This document shows, piece by piece, positions 40,723 through 53,267 of a stretch of 64,000 nt of DNA (within the stretch, counting starts at the first letter, position 1; every line of letters starts with the position of its first letter). The position numbers and the translations under genes were made by a program. The DNA comes from an uncultured Veillonellaceae bacterium (GTDB lineage Bacteria; Bacillota; Negativicutes; JARBTT01): NCBI GenBank assembly GCA_963805085.1, contig CAWDTA010000004.1, forward strand, positions 410,233-474,232, in the 5' to 3' direction. The notes below the pieces were generated by a model, which saw only the letters and a list, made by a program, of their open reading frames with translations, had not been told where the DNA came from and ran no database searches.

Positions 40723-41148
40723 CTACTCAATAAATAGTCGTTCTGGATCTAATATAATAATCATCCGTTCATCGATTTTACCAATACCAGTAATACAATC
40801 CGTACTACCACCATTAACAAAGTTGGGGGCTGACTGAACATCATCGTCATTTAGCTTAACAATATCTGTTACTTCATCTACAATACACCCCGTCGTCGAT
40901 CCATTGACATTTAACATAATAAATTTACTTTCTTCAGAAAGTTCTTTTTCCACCAAGTTAAATTTATTTCGCAGATTGAAGATATAATTAACGTTTCCTC
41001 TTAAATTAATCATGCCTTCTACTGCCTGGTTAGTCCCAGGCAATGGCTGTATTTTAAACTTTTTCGAACGCAAAATACCGTTAACTGCTGAAACATCAAT
41101 ACCATATTCTTCATCATCTAATGCAAACACCACCAATTGGATGCTCAT
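40723..41148 (-). CDS. cheW: Chemotaxis coupling protein CheW
   Basis: QLVVF..EEYGIDV, GMINLRG, GCIVDEV. Confidence 0.92.
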   Translation of the reverse strand: MSIQLVVFALDDEEYGIDVSAVNGILRSKKFKIQPLPGTNQAVEGMINLRGNVNYIFNLRNKFNLVEKELSEESKFIMLNVNGSTTGCIVDEVTDIVKLNDDDVQSAPNFVNGGSTDCITGIGKIDERMIIILDPERLFIE

Positions 41149-41180
41149 AATGATTGCCTCCTTTCTCTGAAAAATTTTAC

Positions 41181-42236
41181 TTATTTATCATTTGCAAGAT
41201 CATTTAATTGCTCGGTAAGACTGGTAATTTCCTGTACACTGGCTGTCACTTCTTCAATAGCAGCGGCTTGTTGCTCAATCGTACAAGTAGTTTCGCCTCC
41301 CATATGCACGGTTTTGTCTACAGATATTTTTATAGTCGTCGTTAAATCTTTTATTTTACCAACCGTTTCTTTGGAGTCAGCCGAAAGCTTTCTAATTTCT
41401 TGGGCTACAACACCAAATCCTAGTCCAGCTTCGCCAGCTCTAGCTGCTTCAATGGCTGCATTTAGACCTAGTAAGCGAGTTTCATCAGCAATATCCTTAA
41501 TGAATTCCATGACTTCATCAATTTTACCAGTCACTGTATTTACATTTTTAATCTCATTATTTAAATTTGCTTGATTCCCACTAATATCGCTAGCCGAAGC
41601 TGCCAATTCTTCCATTGTTGCCGAAACTTGATGTAAATTATCACTCAATGTATCCGCCATAGCCTTTAGCTTTAATTGTTGATAAGCCGCCTTTGACATA
41701 TTATTAGCCACAAGAAACAGTACATTTGCCGCCGCCTCAATACTTTCACGTGATAATTGACGGATTTCTTGTACAGCTTCTACATAGCCCTCTTCGTCCA
41801 CGCCAATCTCTTTGGCAATCTTGCGGTACTTCTGATCCTGTGGAACAGTCGTTAGTACTTGTCCTCCTAAAATAGTACCAATCAGCCGTCCTTCTAGCAT
41901 AATAGGAGCCGCAAAATCAATAAGCCCTGCATGACACTCATAGACTACTGGTTTACCTGAACGAGCTGCTTCTTCGCCACCTTTACGATGTGATTCTGCA
42001 CAGCGTTTATCACCACATTCTGTGGAATGGGTATAGTCCATACAAAATCGAGTATAACTACTTGGATCCGTAAGAGGCTTTCCTTCGGGATCAACCGTCA
42101 CACTTGCTAAACCAACACCTTTAGCAAAATCATTCTGGAATTGTTGTAAAAATTCCAGATCAATAACGTCTGTCAATTTTATTTCACTCAAATTTAGTTC
42201 ACTCACTGTATTGTTTAAATTTTTCATTTGCACCAT
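41181..42236 (-). CDS. Cytoplasmic PocR-domain chemoreceptor
   Basis: PocR domain plus short MCP signalling domain [22 protein letters not shown]; no TM. Confidence 0.92.
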
Positions 42237-42522
42237 GATAACCCCTCCTATTTTTCATTTTATTATCTTTTGAACCCGCGTGTCTTTGTGTAAACTTCCA
42301 AATTTGAAGAGATGCTACCATTACCTCTAGTTCTGGTTCATTACCAATTAGCTTTTTTTCTTCGATAACTTCATCCACCATGATCATGATTTGAACTCCG
42401 TTGGTGTTGGTTATTACAGCTAAACCATTTGTTCCTGTGTTAGAGATAATTCCAATTACTTCTTCAACAGGGATACCATAGGTTTCGCCCACACACCGAA
42501 ATATGAGTAATTGTTTTCCCAT
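42199..42522 (-). CDS. Degenerate/shortened CheW-like protein
   Basis: [17 protein letters not shown] and IMVDEV retained, central NLRG region absent; GGAG RBS. Confidence 0.5.
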
Positions 42523-47625: not shown

Positions 47626-47672
47626 ATAATAGTAAAAAGCTATTGGCGATCGCCAATAGCTTTTTACTATTA
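47626..47672. terminator. Bidirectional terminator (perfect palindrome)
   Basis: ATAATAGTAAAAAGCTATTGGCGATCGCCAATAGCTTTTTACTATTAT; related copy at 50108-50150. Confidence 0.85.
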
Positions 47673-47704
47673 TATAGATATAAATTCTACTCTATGTAAA
47701 TTAT

Positions 47705-48568
47705 TTATTGAATAAATACTACCGAACAATTTTTCAAGAAATTACTTTCTTGATTTTTGGCTATAATCTTGTCAGCATCTTCCCTGGATATCACTGGGTT
47801 TCTACTAAAGTCTTTTACCTCAACTGCTTTTATTACCAAAGGATTGATGCCAGCAACTGCGAGGTCAGCTGGGTTATCAGTCTTGGCATAACTAGCGAGA
47901 CCTTTTTTAACAATCAAACTATTATCTACATTTTGAGAATTATAAATGGTTCTCCCCGTAACATCTAAAATATTTGGAGCCATCGCTCTTTCTAGACCTA
48001 GGCCTCTACAATCAATGACAACACCGGTAACCATACCTGCTGGAATTACTTCATTCTTAGGCGTTACTGGGATTGGCTGTATTGCATCACTGTTATTAGT
48101 TTTAGTTGCAGGAATTACTGGAGTTACCGGAGCCACAGGAACTGGTATCACTGCCACATGCTCCTCATTTTCCCATACAGCAGATGCCAAACTGTTTTTC
48201 GATCCAAAAATTGGCATAGTAATCGTAATCTGATAGTTCCCATCATCAAGTTTTTCTTCATCAACGATGCGAGCATTGCTAATAACGCCAGATACTAGCG
48301 TTTTAATCTTATCTTGCTTTACGGCCAATTGCTCTACTGTCGTATGATTTTCAATCTCTACACCATATACAATACTCGCAAGATTCCGATATGCATCTAC
48401 AACTGCTGCTCTTCTGGCTAAAGCATCCGCTGGCCCTTGCTTTGTAGCAGAATCCGGTGCAGCACCAACGCCTATTGCCGAAATAGTATTACTATTCCAA
48501 TCGACACCAATAGCAAAACACGTGTTGGATATGAATAGCGTGAACAAAAATATAATTATTTTTTTCAT
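47705..48568 (-). CDS. LPP20-family secreted protein (copy 1)
   Basis: Signal peptide, ARRAAVVDAYRNLA, TGVVIDCRGLGL..AMAP; closely similar to copy 2. Confidence 0.8.
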   Translation of the reverse strand: MKKIIIFLFTLFISNTCFAIGVDWNSNTISAIGVGAAPDSATKQGPADALARRAAVVDAYRNLASIVYGVEIENHTTVEQLAVKQDKIKTLVSGVISNARIVDEEKLDDGNYQITITMPIFGSKNSLASAVWENEEHVAVIPVPVAPVTPVIPATKTNNSDAIQPIPVTPKNEVIPAGMVTGVVIDCRGLGLERAMAPNILDVTGRTIYNSQNVDNSLIVKKGLASYAKTDNPADLAVAGINPLVIKAVEVKDFSRNPVISREDADKIIAKNQESNFLKNCSVVFIQ

Positions 48569-48594
48569 AAAACCAGCTTCTTTCTTTATGTAAA

Positions 48595-48860
48595 TTTTTT
48601 TAAAATTCCAAATCAATGATATGCTTTCTCATCCTTACTATCTTTATTAACCACACTAGGGGTTTGGTTACATATGATTGAAATGCTTGGTTATCGCCAT
48701 GAAGGCTACGAACAATAGCTGTTGCAGCTTTGCATAACTCCTAATGTAAATATGCCGTCTCTCCCAAATATATTGTTTAAATAGTGCTTTCCTAGGGAAA
48801 GATAAGTTTGGTGCTTTTATTATGAACATATATCGTATAAAATTTCAGGCAATTAGCACG
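48595..48860 (-). pseudogene. Decayed 3' remnant of a paralog of the 51219-52343 gene
   Basis: TTTGCATAACTCCTAATGTAAAT and ATGAACATATATCGTATAA match 51355-51377 and 51447-51465. Confidence 0.65.
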
Positions 48861-49190: not shown

Positions 49191-49231
49191 AATTTTAATA
49201 AAACATTCCCTATTTGTCAACTTTTAGCTAT
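49191..49231 (-). promoter_or_regulatory. SigA promoter, copy of the csgG-operon promoter
   Basis: TTGACA-AATAGGGAATGTTTTAT-TAAAAT; near-identical copies at about 53504-53544 and 53881-53920. Confidence 0.75.
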
Positions 49232-49446
49232 TATTTGTCTGAAAGAGTTTGTTAATCACTCAACTTTATGACCCGTACACCTCTCACCCCTGTGTTATAG
49301 CCTTTAATCACAATTTAGTGACACATGATTTCTCACCTATTTCTACCTTTTTTTTACAAAAAATTATTTTTTATTACTATCACATGTTCTAGAACTTTTG
49401 TCTTATCTTTTCACCTTGTTCAAAAAAAAATATATACAAAATGAAT

Positions 49447-49473
49447 TAAGTTTTTTTGTAAAGTTGTCGATAT
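49447..49473 (+). promoter_or_regulatory. Sigma28 (SigD/FliA) promoter
   Basis: TAAG-15 nt-GTCGATAT versus consensus TAAA-N15-GCCGATAT. Confidence 0.7.
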
Positions 49474-49541
49474 AAATATTGTGTGAAATAACTTATAGGA
49501 ACCAAGGATGAAGGAAACTATGGAAACAGGGATGATGACAC

Positions 49542-50057
49542 ATGATGAAAATGAGATCTACACCAGAGGAACTATCTGCCATTAAACTCGCCATGGAGAA
49601 GGAAAAATTAGCGCGAGTTTATAAACGATATCAAGCACTCTATTTATTTCTTTCGGGCAGAACCTGCAAAGAAATATCAGATTTGATTGGTATAACCTCC
49701 ATTACTGTATGTAATATTCACAGAGCATATAAAAAAGGAGGTCTTGATGTAATTCCTGATAAATCAAAACCAGGAAGACCATCACGATTAACCCAAGACC
49801 AACGCAATGAACTAAAACAAGTAATTTCAAACAGGGTACCATCTGAAGTCGGTTTTTTAACAAACTTGACTTGGACAGCAAACTTAATCGGCAAGTATAT
49901 CAAAAGAGAATATGGTTGCACATATTCTATTCGTGGAATTACTGGTATGTTGGCACGGATGGGCTTCTCCTACATCCACCCATCCTACGTACTTGCAAAA
50001 GCCCAACTAAAGCAAGATCAAGTTGCACAGAATTTTGAAACTGTGCAAAATTCTTAA
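49542..50057 (+). CDS. IS630-family transposase N-terminal HTH region only (no DDE domain)
   Basis: RYQALYL..G..EIS..G..TV..YKKGG..PGRPSRLT..WTA..G.TYS.RG..L.RMGFSY..PSY pattern typical of IS630 ORF A. Confidence 0.8.
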   Translation: MMKMRSTPEELSAIKLAMEKEKLARVYKRYQALYLFLSGRTCKEISDLIGITSITVCNIHRAYKKGGLDVIPDKSKPGRPSRLTQDQRNELKQVISNRVPSEVGFLTNLTWTANLIGKYIKREYGCTYSIRGITGMLARMGFSYIHPSYVLAKAQLKQDQVAQNFETVQNS

Positions 50058-50185
50058 AAAAAGTGTATTATTGCTCATAAAGTATAATGCTAAGCAAGCA
50101 ATTGCGAAACTAAAAAGCTATTGGCGATACCGTCAATAGCTTTTTTAGTTTTTATATACTCAGCCCTCTACTTTATTTAAATAAA

Positions 50186-51013
50186 TTATTCAATAAATAC
50201 TACCGAGCATGTTTTGAAGAAATGGTTTTCCTTATTTGCATCTAGTATCTTGTCACCATCTTCTTTTGAGACAACTGGATTTTTATTAGAATCTTGTACA
50301 GCCATCGCTTTCACAACCAAAGGATTACTTCCAGCAGATGTAAGATCAGCTGGGGCATCGGTGTTAGAATAACTAGCCAGACCGTTTTTTACAATAGTAT
50401 TATTATCTACATCTTTGGAATTGTAAATGGTTCTCCCTGTGATATCTACAATATTAGGCGCCATTGCTTTTTCTAGTCCCAGTCCTCTGCAATCAATAAC
50501 CACACCAGTAACAGTACCTACTGAAGTTTTTTCTAACTTAGGAGGCAATGGAACTGGCAGTAATATATCACTGTTCATTGGAGGAGTCGCAGTCACTGGC
50601 ATTTCATGATCCTCGTTTGGCCATACAGCAGCTGCTAAACTATTTGTCCCAAACAATGGCATAGTAAGCGTGATCTCATAGTTGCCATTATCAAGTTGTT
50701 CTTCATCAACGATGCGAGCATTCTTGATAATACCAGATACTGAAGTCTTAATTGTATCTTTTTTAACGGCCAATTCCGCCACTGTTGTATGATTTTCAAT
50801 TTCTACACCATATACAATACTAGCGAGATTTCTATATGCATCTACCACTGCAGCTCTTCTTGCCAAAGCATCCGCTTGCCCAGGCTTAATAGCATAATCG
50901 GGTGCAGCGCCAACGCCGATTGCTGAAATCGTATTACTGTTCCAATCAACACCAATAGCAAAACATGTGTTGGATATAAATAATGTGAATAAAAATATAA
51001 TTACTTTTTTCAT
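50186..51013 (-). CDS. LPP20-family secreted protein (copy 2)
   Basis: Start MKKVIIFLFT at 51013 by comparison with copy 1; same motifs. Confidence 0.8.
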   Translation of the reverse strand: MKKVIIFLFTLFISNTCFAIGVDWNSNTISAIGVGAAPDYAIKPGQADALARRAAVVDAYRNLASIVYGVEIENHTTVAELAVKKDTIKTSVSGIIKNARIVDEEQLDNGNYEITLTMPLFGTNSLAAAVWPNEDHEMPVTATPPMNSDILLPVPLPPKLEKTSVGTVTGVVIDCRGLGLEKAMAPNIVDITGRTIYNSKDVDNNTIVKNGLASYSNTDAPADLTSAGSNPLVVKAMAVQDSNKNPVVSKEDGDKILDANKENHFFKTCSVVFIE

Positions 51014-51196
51014 AAAAACAGCTTCTTTCTTTATGTAATTTATTTTTAAAGTTCTTAATCGATTGTACTGTTTATTATCCTTGATATTATGAATATAAAT
51101 CGTATAATTCTCAATGTATTTGCAGCATAAAAAAGCAAAACATGTTGTTGATAATAATAACGAAGACAAAAGCAAAAACAGCACTAACTTCTTCAT
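51014..51196 (-). pseudogene. Collapsed duplication remnant (signal peptide plus pieces of the upstream gene's 3' end)
   Basis: MKKLVLFLLLSSLLLSTTCFA then NYTIYIHNIKD (cf. NYTVYVHDIKD); AAAGAAAGAAGCTGTTTTTATG repeated at both ends. Confidence 0.6.
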
Positions 51197-51218
51197 AAAA
51201 ACAGCTTCTTTCTTTAAT

Positions 51219-52343
51219 TTATTTTTGAAAAGTTAAATCAATTGTACTGTTTGTTATCTTCGTTATATTGGCTGGACATGCTAAGTCTTCCGTTAAATAC
51301 GATGCCAGTGCTTGATTGTCACCATTAAAACTAATATCTATGACTGCTGTATTATTTGCGTAACTCCTAATGTAAATGTCTTGCACTCCATCTATATTGT
51401 TCAAGTAATCCTTTAATAACGAAAGATTGGTTTGATCCTTTATATCATGAACATAAACCGTATAATTTTTCAAAGCTGTTGCTGCATAATTTACCAACCG
51501 ATTTGCGATATCATACCCTGCTTTTTCCCCTGTTTTATATTTCGCATTCTCTGCAGCTGTTTTTTGCGTGATATCTATTCCGCTGTCTTCATATTGCCCC
51601 AACTGAATTGTTTCTCCGGTATCACACTTTGTCGTATTGATATTTAGCGTAGCACCATTCGATTTAATTGGTACTTGTGTATCAAATTTAATTTCAATAT
51701 CATTTGAGCTTATACTTCCCGTTACAATATAATCCAATTGTTCCTGTGCGCCAAGTAAGGCAATTGTATTAATATCTCCTTTATCCACAGCTGCTTGGAA
51801 ACGTTCTTTTTTAATTTGCGCCAACTGATTCATATTGATTACGTGAGAAAAACCTGATTTATTTAAACTTGATGCAATCGCATTTTCTGCAGATGCATCA
51901 GAAGTTTGATTGTTATTATTATGATTTAAAATAACAATGCCAATTCGCGGATCACCAATCCCCGTATGAATTGTTCTTACTTTATCCAAGCTTGTCATCA
52001 ATTTGGAGTTTGGTTCCATATCGATAATAACTTTCGTCTTAACCGTATACTTTCCATCATTTTCACTCTCTTTTAATATCTCATAACTTCTGATATAGCC
52101 ATCTGTATGAGAATAAATTTGATCGCGAATTAATGTATTATTTCTGACATAGGTGCTCGTATTGATTGCTATCCCAACAACTTTTTCTAATGCAATGCGA
52201 AATGAATCTTGTATTGCTGCTTTTCTATTTGGGCCAGTTCCCTCCGCAATATATTCTAAAGCATAAACATTCGAGGTCATTGTTAATAAGTAACTCATAC
52301 ATAACAGAACTGTAACTTTTTTGATGGTTGTCCTTATTTTCAA
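51219..52343 (-). CDS. Secreted protein with FlgT N-terminal-like domain
   Basis: Signal peptide; AEGTG..AAIQDSFRIALEKVVG.I.T.V.N..I.D.I..GYI.SYEIL pattern. Confidence 0.65.
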   Translation of the reverse strand: MKIRTTIKKVTVLLCMSYLLTMTSNVYALEYIAEGTGPNRKAAIQDSFRIALEKVVGIAINTSTYVRNNTLIRDQIYSHTDGYIRSYEILKESENDGKYTVKTKVIIDMEPNSKLMTSLDKVRTIHTGIGDPRIGIVILNHNNNNQTSDASAENAIASSLNKSGFSHVINMNQLAQIKKERFQAAVDKGDINTIALLGAQEQLDYIVTGSISSNDIEIKFDTQVPIKSNGATLNINTTKCDTGETIQLGQYEDSGIDITQKTAAENAKYKTGEKAGYDIANRLVNYAATALKNYTVYVHDIKDQTNLSLLKDYLNNIDGVQDIYIRSYANNTAVIDISFNGDNQALASYLTEDLACPANITKITNSTIDLTFQK

Positions 52344-52388
52344 TTTTCCACCAACCTTTTAGTCTCATTAAAATATACTGAAACTAGC

Positions 52389-53267
52389 TTATTGCCTGAT
52401 CGCCGTATCCCCAATTCTTATATCGTATACATCGCCGCTTCTAACGGTTCCTGATGCCATTTTATGCTCTACACTTCCAATGGTAATTTGGCAAATTGGT
52501 TTGCTCTGAACCCCTAAGACTTCACCTGTAATTGGATGTCGAATTGATTTACCTTCCTGATACACAACAAAAATTTGACCAGGTTCAACTTTCTTATTTT
52601 CCCCAACATCAAGATATATCATGTTCCCATCTATTCCTGCTATATGAGCCGAAATAGATGGTATATTCAACTTTTCATCTAAAGTACTACAAATTTTTTC
52701 GACTGTGCTCTGCGCAGCATTTGTATATGCAGTGGAGCTTATTGTCCATACTTTCTTCCCATTTTTATCTTTACCAATTGTATGACTGACGCTCCCCGTT
52801 ACCGTATCTGCAAAAACAACAGCCCCCGAGGTTGTATCAACGACTTTCCAAAATACCATTACATTCACGGCTGGGGCACTTCGTGATTTAGTATCTGGAG
52901 TTGTAATACGAGCATCCAAAATTGTTCCTGTTACAAGATAATTAATCCCAACAATGCGTCCCATTTGAACCGCACTATCCTTAGAAATAATTCCCGTACG
53001 ACCTAATCCCTGCTCATTTAGAACTTCACCTAAATTAACGCGGTCAATAACATTAAACTTTTCATTCTTAGATAATTCAGACATAAGAGAATCTGTTACA
53101 ACTTGTTCAAGCCCACGCCGTGTAGAAACATTTTTAAATGTAAGAATTCCAATAGATTTTTGCTGCGCCGCATACGCTATCTCTGTAAAAGAAAAAATAA
53201 AACACATGAAAAACAGCAACATCATAGCACAGGAAAGAATGCGTTTTTGTTTTATCATTGCCATCAT
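52389..53267 (-). CDS. CsgG/HfaB-family protein with FlgT C-terminal-like domain
   Basis: FNVIDR.NL..VLNEQ..G.I....A...G...G..YLVTG; IYLDVG..GQIFVVY..HPITGEVLG. Confidence 0.8.
   Translation of the reverse strand: MMAMIKQKRILSCAMMLLFFMCFIFSFTEIAYAAQQKSIGILTFKNVSTRRGLEQVVTDSLMSELSKNEKFNVIDRVNLGEVLNEQGLGRTGIISKDSAVQMGRIVGINYLVTGTILDARITTPDTKSRSAPAVNVMVFWKVVDTTSGAVVFADTVTGSVSHTIGKDKNGKKVWTISSTAYTNAAQSTVEKICSTLDEKLNIPSISAHIAGIDGNMIYLDVGENKKVEPGQIFVVYQEGKSIRHPITGEVLGVQSKPICQITIGSVEHKMASGTVRSGDVYDIRIGDTAIRQ

Follow-up and report, generated by a model that had tools for sequence, protein, structure and literature searches.

Why does a bacterium keep the DNA-binding half of a transposase, without its catalytic half, behind a promoter that resembles that of a flagellin gene? 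The question is raised by a gene at positions 49545..50057 (+) in a 64,000-nt stretch of DNA from an uncultured Veillonellaceae bacterium (hereafter the window; all coordinates are positions in it unless a contig is named, and its own genome, 83% complete, is called G000). The gene encodes a bipartite helix-turn-helix (HTH) domain derived from OrfA of an IS630 insertion sequence (IS). We show here that an IS630 left end, together with its OrfA gene, has become fixed at one locus and is under selection. The comparative data suggest that the product is most likely a domesticated, self-regulating DNA-binding protein expressed with the late flagellar genes.

The sequence agrees with an earlier note on this DNA, which had described an uninterrupted 171-residue frame closing with TAA within TTAAAAAAAG: the open reading frame runs from the first in-frame ATG, at 49542, to 50057 (+), and its stop, at 50055-50057, lies inside TTAAAAAAAG (50054-50063). 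Comparison of orthologues places the conserved start at the second ATG, 49545, which gives a protein of 170 residues. The IS630 HTH identity that had been proposed for it is supported by Pfam matches to HTH_23, HTH_32, and HTH_33 and by a partial match to the NCBIfam model transpos_IS630 (NF033545), which at 79.7 bits (E = 2.4e-22) falls below the full-length cutoff of 100 bits. Because this model is matched over profile positions 2-130 of 299 alone, the gene encodes the DNA-binding half only. No DDE domain lies in the 128 nt that separate the stop codon from the next gene, as the note had described, and PF13358 (DDE_3) has no match across the whole of G000. The protein is 63% identical to a 347-residue IS630 transposase of Sporomusa carbonis (P0061). 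IS-type relatives carry a run of eight A residues at the end of the HTH region, followed by the start of the DDE part in another frame; the window has a run of seven at the same place (50056..50062, +), the relic of an IS630 slippery site with orfB no longer downstream. A frameshift role for this run, which had also been raised, is not supported, since the run is gone from the 90% identical orthologue L029.

An AlphaFold2 model of the protein (mean predicted local distance difference test score, 84.5) adopts a two-lobed helical domain, whose best two-domain matches, to Pax paired domains, the SETMAR DNA-binding domain, Mos1, and Tc3, have Z scores of 4.8-6.2, which are middling and not decisive. 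The Pax and SETMAR matches account for Z scores of 5.7-6.2, and the SETMAR structure is that of the domain bound to its terminal inverted repeat (TIR). Z scores in the VIA structure comparison were ≤6.5. Foldseek gave no match to the model at E ≤0.001 (E 0.014 or worse), and a sequence search of the PDB returned nothing significant (SETMAR, E 0.079; SB PAI, E 0.37).

Orthologues of the HTH gene were sought in metagenomes and genomes, which yielded 13 metagenome loci and two Propionispira genomes; a scan of the class added one further genome, G318. Two of the 13 metagenome loci, L030 and L031, are IS-type and were left out of the orthologue set. The DDE-less orthologues comprise those of Propionispira arboris DSM 2179, Propionispira raffinosivorans DSM 20765, and G318 and nine metagenome contigs, all at the same site. 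Every member of the set lacks the DDE part, and the complete ones encode 155-171 residues. A convergent LPP20-like gene is present in 11 of the 12 loci examined, as well as in G318, which means in every locus with enough flank: the twelfth, L033, ends inside the HTH gene, while L041 (1268 bp, also cut) lay outside these 12. None of the 12 full-length syntenic copies, the most distant of them 53-56% identical, has an interrupted reading frame. Comparison of the Propionispira-clade loci with the window shows that the HTH protein is 69-75% identical, whereas its three neighbours are 58-62%, 65-66%, and 55-57% identical. A search of 60 relatives revealed no close orthologue. Scanning 401 genomes of the class, we found the HTH gene in two (G000 and G318) and IS-type copies in G072 and G200, while the family of the neighbouring 373-residue protein occurs in 102 of the 401. 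Because that family is so much more widespread than the HTH gene, which was found in these two genomes and in Propionispira, the IS insertion is younger than the neighbouring operon.

The orthologous genes bear a clear signature of selection. Nei-Gojobori (NG86) ratios of nonsynonymous to synonymous substitution rates (dN/dS) range from 0.062 to 0.193 over 55 pairs of 11 syntenic coding sequences, and the window and L029 differ at proportions of 0.048 of nonsynonymous and 0.38 of synonymous sites. The IS-type paralogue lineage, which serves as an internal control, gave dN/dS values of 0.38, 0.54, and 1.03, each based on few substitutions. Thus, the HTH gene is under purifying selection after its loss of mobility. 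Maximum-likelihood analysis of 39 rows gave an unrooted tree, displayed with a midpoint root, in which the 12 syntenic rows and P0031, whose genomic context is unknown, form one group against 26 IS-type rows with support of 97/99. A shared orthologous site, purifying selection, and a single clade are the usual marks of domestication, and the HTH gene bears all three. The earlier note had put forward a domesticated transposase DNA-binding domain and had proposed looking for DDE-less orthologues with the same promoter and leader and dN/dS below 1; such orthologues exist, syntenic and in one clade, with dN/dS of 0.06-0.19.

The gene also retains part of the left end of the element from which it came. 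A relic of the left TIR spans 49431..49450 (+) and includes the TAAG of the -35 element discussed below. It aligns with the 19-nt TIR of the complete L030 element, the arms of which are 95% complementary and 1100 nt apart, as well as with the left ends of two IS copies in the class relative G072 (L023 and L026) and the reverse complement of the right end of a third (L027). The core that the relic has in common with the right end of the related IS reaches ~49460. No right TIR was found at the HTH locus, where the sequence 3' of the stop codon is unrelated to the IS copies. The statement that the locus has no evident TIRs is therefore correct for the right end and has to be amended for the left.

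Comparison of the G072 copies defines the left end of the IS more closely, placing the start of the element ~75-80 nt 5' of the start codon. Their terminal repeat consists of the core TGAATTAAG and then a T run, and just inside the left end they carry (A/G)CCGATAT; at the position of the promoter, the full-length relatives read TAAA, 16 nt, (A/G)CCGATAT. G072 contains four IS630 copies. Over the region compared, their protein does not differ from the S. carbonis transposase, and it is 63% identical to the window protein. None of the four (L023, L026, L027, and L028) in this complete genome is whole. Three of them share the left end, the matches among the copies stop at different right-hand points, and L028 contains an internal inverted duplication.

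Within G000 itself, a test for mobile copies revealed one copy of the HTH gene and one truncated paralogue, rather than several near-identical copies at varying sites. The near-identical full-length IS630 copies that the earlier note had set against domestication were not found in G000. The paralogue (locus L002, G000:C4:596-1117, -), which lies outside the window, encodes 173 residues and is 71% identical in protein and 76% in DNA. It is a truncated IS630 element: an A8 slippery run survives, as do ~30 codons from the beginning of the DDE part in another frame, and the element breaks off beside an 84-residue IS200/RAYT-like fragment. Its promoter has CAATAT in place of CGATAT. The paralogue's near-identical metagenome relatives are L030 and L031, one of which is a complete element of ~1.14 kb with 19-nt TIRs. 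In addition, an intergenic stretch of ~40 nt at G000:C4:150680-150722 (-), likewise outside the window, resembles the TIR and promoter region of the HTH gene but has no CGATAT box; the gene downstream of it is cytidine deaminase-like (judged by eye, without a family scan), and the stretch may be a solo left-end relic.

The promoter assigned to the HTH gene (49447..49473, +) is of the sigma-28/SigD type and consists of TAAG at 49447-49450, a 15-nt spacer, and GTCGATAT at 49466-49473, exactly as previously reported. All 13 aligned upstream regions of orthologues agree in TTAAG, the T run that follows it, the spacing of 15 nt, and CGATATA, and all 14 orthologous loci have TTAAG, a spacer of 14-15 nt, and nnCGATAT (in G318, locus L024, the arrangement is TAAG, 14 nt, AACGATAT). 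The first two bases of the -10 element are GC, GT, or AC across the orthologues. Invariance over 14 orthologous loci is what lifts these motifs above chance; within a single genome they are unremarkable. Sigma-28 spacers need not be conserved, and the invariance of TTAAGTTTTT, located in the promoter spacer of the orthologues, argues for a second constraint on this region beside sigma-28. In CGATAT, the C and the G are characteristic of sigma-28, and a sigma-70 -10 box has no need of them. The promoters of the Propionispira clade mostly read TAAG-N15-GCCGATAT, and the published SigD motif is TAAA-N15-GCCGATAT (PMC5200910). The flagellin promoters of G000 and P. raffinosivorans, the two genomes checked, have TTAAG, 14 nt, and TACGATAT. 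G000 encodes FliA (FliA_WhiG match of 253 bits, above the cutoff), which, to judge from the flagellin promoter motif, presumably serves the flagellin gene. A promoter scan predicted no sigma-70-type site at the HTH promoter. A strict sigma-28 pattern was also searched for in the two Propionispira genomes; 8 of the 30 loci fetched lie outside long open frames and represent five distinct sites over the two genomes, the HTH gene included, and two further proteins downstream of such sites had no family match in the scan.

Collectively, the HTH promoter matches the SigD/sigma-28 consensus, and membership of the gene in the motility regulon is plausible. The case for sigma-28 is built on conservation and on likeness to flagellin promoters; the promoter, its start point, and its sigma-28 dependence are predictions from comparison of the DNA. 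The origin of the promoter can be read from the IS copies. Because the -35 element is part of the IS repeat, the -10 element lies just inside the IS, and full-length relatives have the same arrangement, the promoter was not captured from a motility gene. The alternative offered in the earlier note, that an IS fragment had captured such a leader, is therefore abandoned in favor of an IS-borne promoter.

The predicted 5' leader is ~64 nt long (49481..49544, +, counted from the putative start point) and contains five GGA motifs, at 49498, 49506, 49513, 49522, and 49530, with a spacing of 7-9 nt; four of the five are ANGGA, and this description, too, stands as it was first given. The density of the motifs was rejected as a signal since it does not exceed that of shuffled sequence: G000 has 34 clusters of at least five GGA in 37 nt, and its contig C4 has four, compared with two to seven in shuffles. 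Conservation across the clade is limited to two of the five. The proximal motif, ACAGGGATGA (49526-49535, +), overlaps the ribosome-binding site, and its form ACA(A/G)GGATGA is invariant in 13 of 13 loci, 10-12 nt 5' of the start codon. The distal motif, ACCAAGGATGA (49501-49511, +), keeps its GGA in 13 of 13 loci, 19-24 nt upstream of the proximal one, with the full CCAAGGATG in 10 of them, CCACGGATG in two, and CCATGGAAG in one. In G318 the leader has two ACAAGGATGA sites. IS-type copies have one GGA site or none, and the second site thus appears to be a feature of the domesticated clade.

These two sites raise the question of control by CsrA. The proximal site agrees at 9 of 11 positions with the CsrA consensus from systematic evolution of ligands by exponential enrichment, RUACARGGAUGU, including the ACA and GGA that are fully conserved in it according to a review, which also lists FliW as a CsrA antagonist (PMC4347634). 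In G000 the fliW and csrA genes are adjacent to each other and next to the flagellin gene (G000:C2:1818318-1823451; loci L015, L016, and L106). The G000 flagellin leader, used as a control, folds with z = -2.9 and presents GGGA in a hairpin loop together with a GGA at the ribosome-binding site, a layout that the P. raffinosivorans flagellin leader shares by eye. The leader of the window gene has no significant fold (z = +0.3). CsrA control of HTH-gene translation is a fair hypothesis, if a speculative one.

These data can be joined into a single account. An IS630 element would have inserted just 3' of an envelope-lipoprotein operon in an ancestor of the window organism, Propionispira, and a few other Negativicutes and would later have been stripped of its right end and of the catalytic DDE half. 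The surviving parts are the left inverted repeat, with the promoter and leader of the element itself, and the bipartite HTH domain of OrfA type; that the host has retained this remnant as a gene is shown by synteny, the single clade, and strong purifying selection. FliA/SigD most likely transcribes the gene from a promoter whose -35 element lies inside the old inverted repeat, as its consensus and conservation suggest. Since the HTH protein should still recognize the relic repeat, it is probably an autorepressor that binds the promoter of its own gene. More speculatively, translation may be subject to the FliW-CsrA flagellin checkpoint by way of the two conserved GGA motifs, one of which overlaps the ribosome-binding site. 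Taken as a whole, a domesticated IS630 left end and OrfA gene that is transcribed by FliA, bound by its own product, and perhaps controlled by CsrA is the explanation we consider likely. Several motile soil and plant bacteria have kept the gene at one fixed site, and its product is probably a new motility-linked regulator. A bolder version holds that the IS630 elements of one Negativicutes clade carry a sigma-28 promoter inside their left end, which would tie the making of transposase to flagellar assembly, and that one copy was exapted whole, promoter and leader included, as a late-flagellar transcription factor that FliW-CsrA gates at the level of translation through the two GGA sites and that binds its own TIR-derived operator and other host sites; this we regard as rather doubtful.

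Several findings weigh against the account. The HTH protein is not more conserved than its surroundings in L029 (90%, with neighbours at 81-90%), and in L032 the two are about equally conserved (76% and 72-82%); in many of the deeper pairs dS is saturated. With the HTH gene in 2 of 401 class genomes and the neighbour family in 102, many losses or a transfer of the locus must be assumed: either the insertion was confined to a subclade with losses or it would have moved with the locus. A search of G000 for TIR-like operators found nothing beyond the two IS-derived loci and the possible relic at C4:150680-150722, and in Propionispira the 5 and 6 matches, against 4 and 4 in the control, were not beyond chance; no regulon can therefore be named for the protein. 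The loose sigma-28 pattern occurs 200 times in G000 (72 of them intergenic), with ~173 expected, and 1 of 20 downstream open reading frames is flagellar by Pfam (FliD_C-like), besides flagellin itself. The strict pattern is modestly enriched in the two Propionispira genomes, at 23 and 25 occurrences against 13 and 17 in the control. Among the HTH-gene leaders folded, z lies between +0.2 and +0.8 in four of five and at -0.5 in L032, and the predicted folds show no hairpin with a GGA in its loop; the Propionispira leader forms a weak hairpin, and its minimum-free-energy fold partly pairs the distal GGA. The proximal GGA may be a Shine-Dalgarno sequence and nothing more. A run search for 49300-50200 returned no RNA run, only DNA metagenome runs that matched ≤0.38 of the words.

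Truncated transposases and OrfA-type proteins are known to restrain their own elements, and the HTH-only protein might accordingly act as a transposition inhibitor or immunity factor, occupying the inverted repeats of incoming IS630 relatives and thereby blocking their transposase, with the motility-style control an incidental inheritance from the IS. Such a role would fit the retention under selection of the whole TIR-binding domain, the circulation, within the class and in the metagenomes that yielded orthologues, of related IS630 elements that share the TIR core, the fact that G000 has only a truncated IS-type copy and no DDE_3 match, and the occurrence of the promoter arrangement in mobile relatives as well. 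However, the domesticated clade shows no variation in CGATAT or in the second GGA site, whereas these are degenerate or missing in IS-type copies, with CAATAT in three of three copies of the paralogue lineage and zero or one GGA site. This difference suggests host-side selection on the regulation itself, and we consider an inhibitor, the chief rival reading, unlikely.

The gene might, alternatively, be a domesticated regulator that lies outside the flagellar regulon and is read by a housekeeping or other sigma factor, with the TATAAA in CGATATAAA as its -10 element, and its GGA motifs might amount to a Shine-Dalgarno sequence and a purine-rich leader without CsrA. TATAAA does overlap the -10 element in most orthologous loci, the loose sigma-28 pattern is frequent by chance, the predicted folds of the HTH leader show no GGA in a hairpin of the kind that both flagellin leaders have, and the neighbouring operon has no sigma-28-like site in the G000 loose-pattern list. 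Yet there is no -35 element near TTGACA at the right distance, and no sigma-70 site is predicted; L033 has TATAGA at the would-be -10 position with CGATAT intact; and the TTAAG of the -35 element and its spacing are invariant and equal to those of the flagellin promoters. A nonflagellar regulator is, in our judgment, somewhat less likely still. Finally, a neutral, decaying IS630 fragment without host function, which a 3'-truncated IS with a relic TIR and slippery run and a second truncated copy in G000 might suggest, is contradicted by frames that stay open in all 12 full-length syntenic copies even at 53-56% identity, by dN/dS of ~0.1 against 0.4-1.0 in the truly decaying lineage, by conservation of the gene at least as strong as that of most neighbours, and by the conserved noncoding signals, and is highly improbable.

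The syntenic anchor of the locus is an operon convergent with the HTH gene (50186..53267, -), recognized by Pfam matches and by the same neighbours across loci. It comprises a CsgG/LpoB-like lipoprotein gene (52389-53267, -), the gene for the 373-residue protein in the middle (51219-52343, -), and, last, an LPP20-like lipoprotein gene (50186-51196, -) arranged tail to tail with the HTH gene. A two-way intrinsic terminator of 15 pairs and a T run (50112..50145, acting on both strands) is common to the HTH and LPP20-like genes, and the hairpin 3' of the HTH gene is kept in all orthologous loci. The HTH gene sits between two LPP20-like paralogues, at 47705-48616 (-) and 50186-51196 (-), which have the same terminator hairpin (47633-47719 and 50111-50200). 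This two-sided layout is common to L029 and L033, while L032 has both copies on one side and Propionispira a single copy; because of these differences, the LPP20-like duplication is younger than the IS insertion. LPP20-like proteins belong to the FlgP family, and the 373-residue protein has sub-threshold matches to FlgT_N (E 0.002), LpoB/CsgG, and leptospiral LipL46. These are hints, unproven, that the operon could be a flagellar outer-membrane disk set; a flagellar role is not claimed for it, since the LPP20 and CsgG/LpoB-like matches and the sub-threshold FlgT_N and LipL46 matches are all that bears on it.

Two further features of the surroundings were observed. A near-perfect sigma-70 promoter at 49192-49220 (-), with TTGACA, 17 nt, and TAAAAT (11 of 12 positions), is directed away from the HTH gene; it lies ~575 nt 5' of the start of the LPP20-like paralogue, with no long open reading frame between, and could give rise to a long leader or a small RNA. 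The region 40723-42522 (-), 7-9 kb upstream, contains a CheW gene, a methyl-accepting chemotaxis protein with a PocR domain, and a 107-codon open reading frame whose first 24 residues match the start of CheW and which may be a broken or fused cheW.

The closest known relatives of the gene are the OrfA genes of frameshift-type IS630 elements, such as S. carbonis P0061 and the G072 copies, with which it has in common whole-length homology at 63% identity, the bipartite HTH, the left TIR, the position of the promoter, and the A run after the HTH region. It differs from them in having no orfB/DDE part and no right TIR, in being a single copy at a fixed chromosomal site, in forming a separate clade with long-term purifying selection after truncation, and in the second GGA site of its leader. 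Autorepression is known from IS1 InsA and IS911 OrfA, HTH-only proteins whose promoter lies in the left inverted repeat of their own element. They resemble the HTH protein as small HTH proteins encoded at the 5' end of an IS, with a promoter overlapping the bound left inverted repeat, and it is because of this likeness that we propose autoregulation. InsA and OrfA belong, however, to active elements of other IS families, whereas the window element is dead and its gene is inherited vertically.

On the side of the host, the nearest parallel in regulation is hag of Bacillus subtilis, which has a SigD promoter and two CsrA sites that are relieved by FliW. The window gene is like it in its TAAG-N15-nnCGATAT promoter and in having a pair of GGA motifs, 19-24 nt apart, of which one overlaps the ribosome-binding site; G000 has fliA, fliW, and csrA and a flagellin gene of its own with the classical layout. 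It is unlike hag in that the predicted folds do not display the distal GGA in a stable hairpin loop, the product is a DNA-binding protein rather than a filament subunit, and the control of the window gene is a prediction from sequence. In another parallel, the TldR proteins are RNA-guided repressors of fliC derived from TnpB (PMC10705468). There, as here, bacteria have turned a transposon protein into a transcription factor connected with the flagellar system, a role and a connection that for the window gene are predicted. The mechanisms differ, an HTH domain in one case and a relative of an RNA-guided nuclease in the other, and the target of TldR is known and tested. Our literature search, in which most subscription journals lay outside the search, found no title or abstract that describes a host gene derived from IS630 in bacteria, an IS promoter driven by sigma-28, or regulation of an IS630 gene by CsrA.

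The conversion of a transposase DNA-binding domain into a regulator is textbook knowledge in eukaryotes, and to our knowledge few bacterial cases are documented. The comparative evidence in the present case is unusually clean: the locus is fixed, the copies form one clade, dN/dS is ~0.1, and an IS-type paralogue lineage in decay provides the internal control. The case illustrates how an IS can supply a ready-made regulatory cassette, an old inverted repeat now being part of a conserved promoter, and it lends itself to direct tests, as the gene is carried by the cultured type strains P. arboris DSM 2179 and P. raffinosivorans DSM 20765. If the sigma-28 and CsrA wiring is true, the protein would be a new regulator in the flagellar hierarchy of the diderm Firmicutes. 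Eukaryotic domestications of Tc1/mariner DNA-binding domains are well known, among them SETMAR, the Pax paired domain, and the CENP-B/pogo-derived genes (PMC7386202 and PMC13548663). In these, too, the DNA-binding domain of an IS630-Tc1-mariner transposase has been kept by the host without transposition, and Pax and SETMAR are among the best matches to the model of the window protein. The window gene is set apart from SETMAR and Pax by being bacterial, by consisting of the domain alone rather than a fusion to a host domain, by keeping the IS promoter and a TIR relic, and by the middling structural scores. Were exaptation of the whole cassette to prove true, it would be a bacterial counterpart of the Pax- and SETMAR-type domestications, one that came pre-wired by the transposon.

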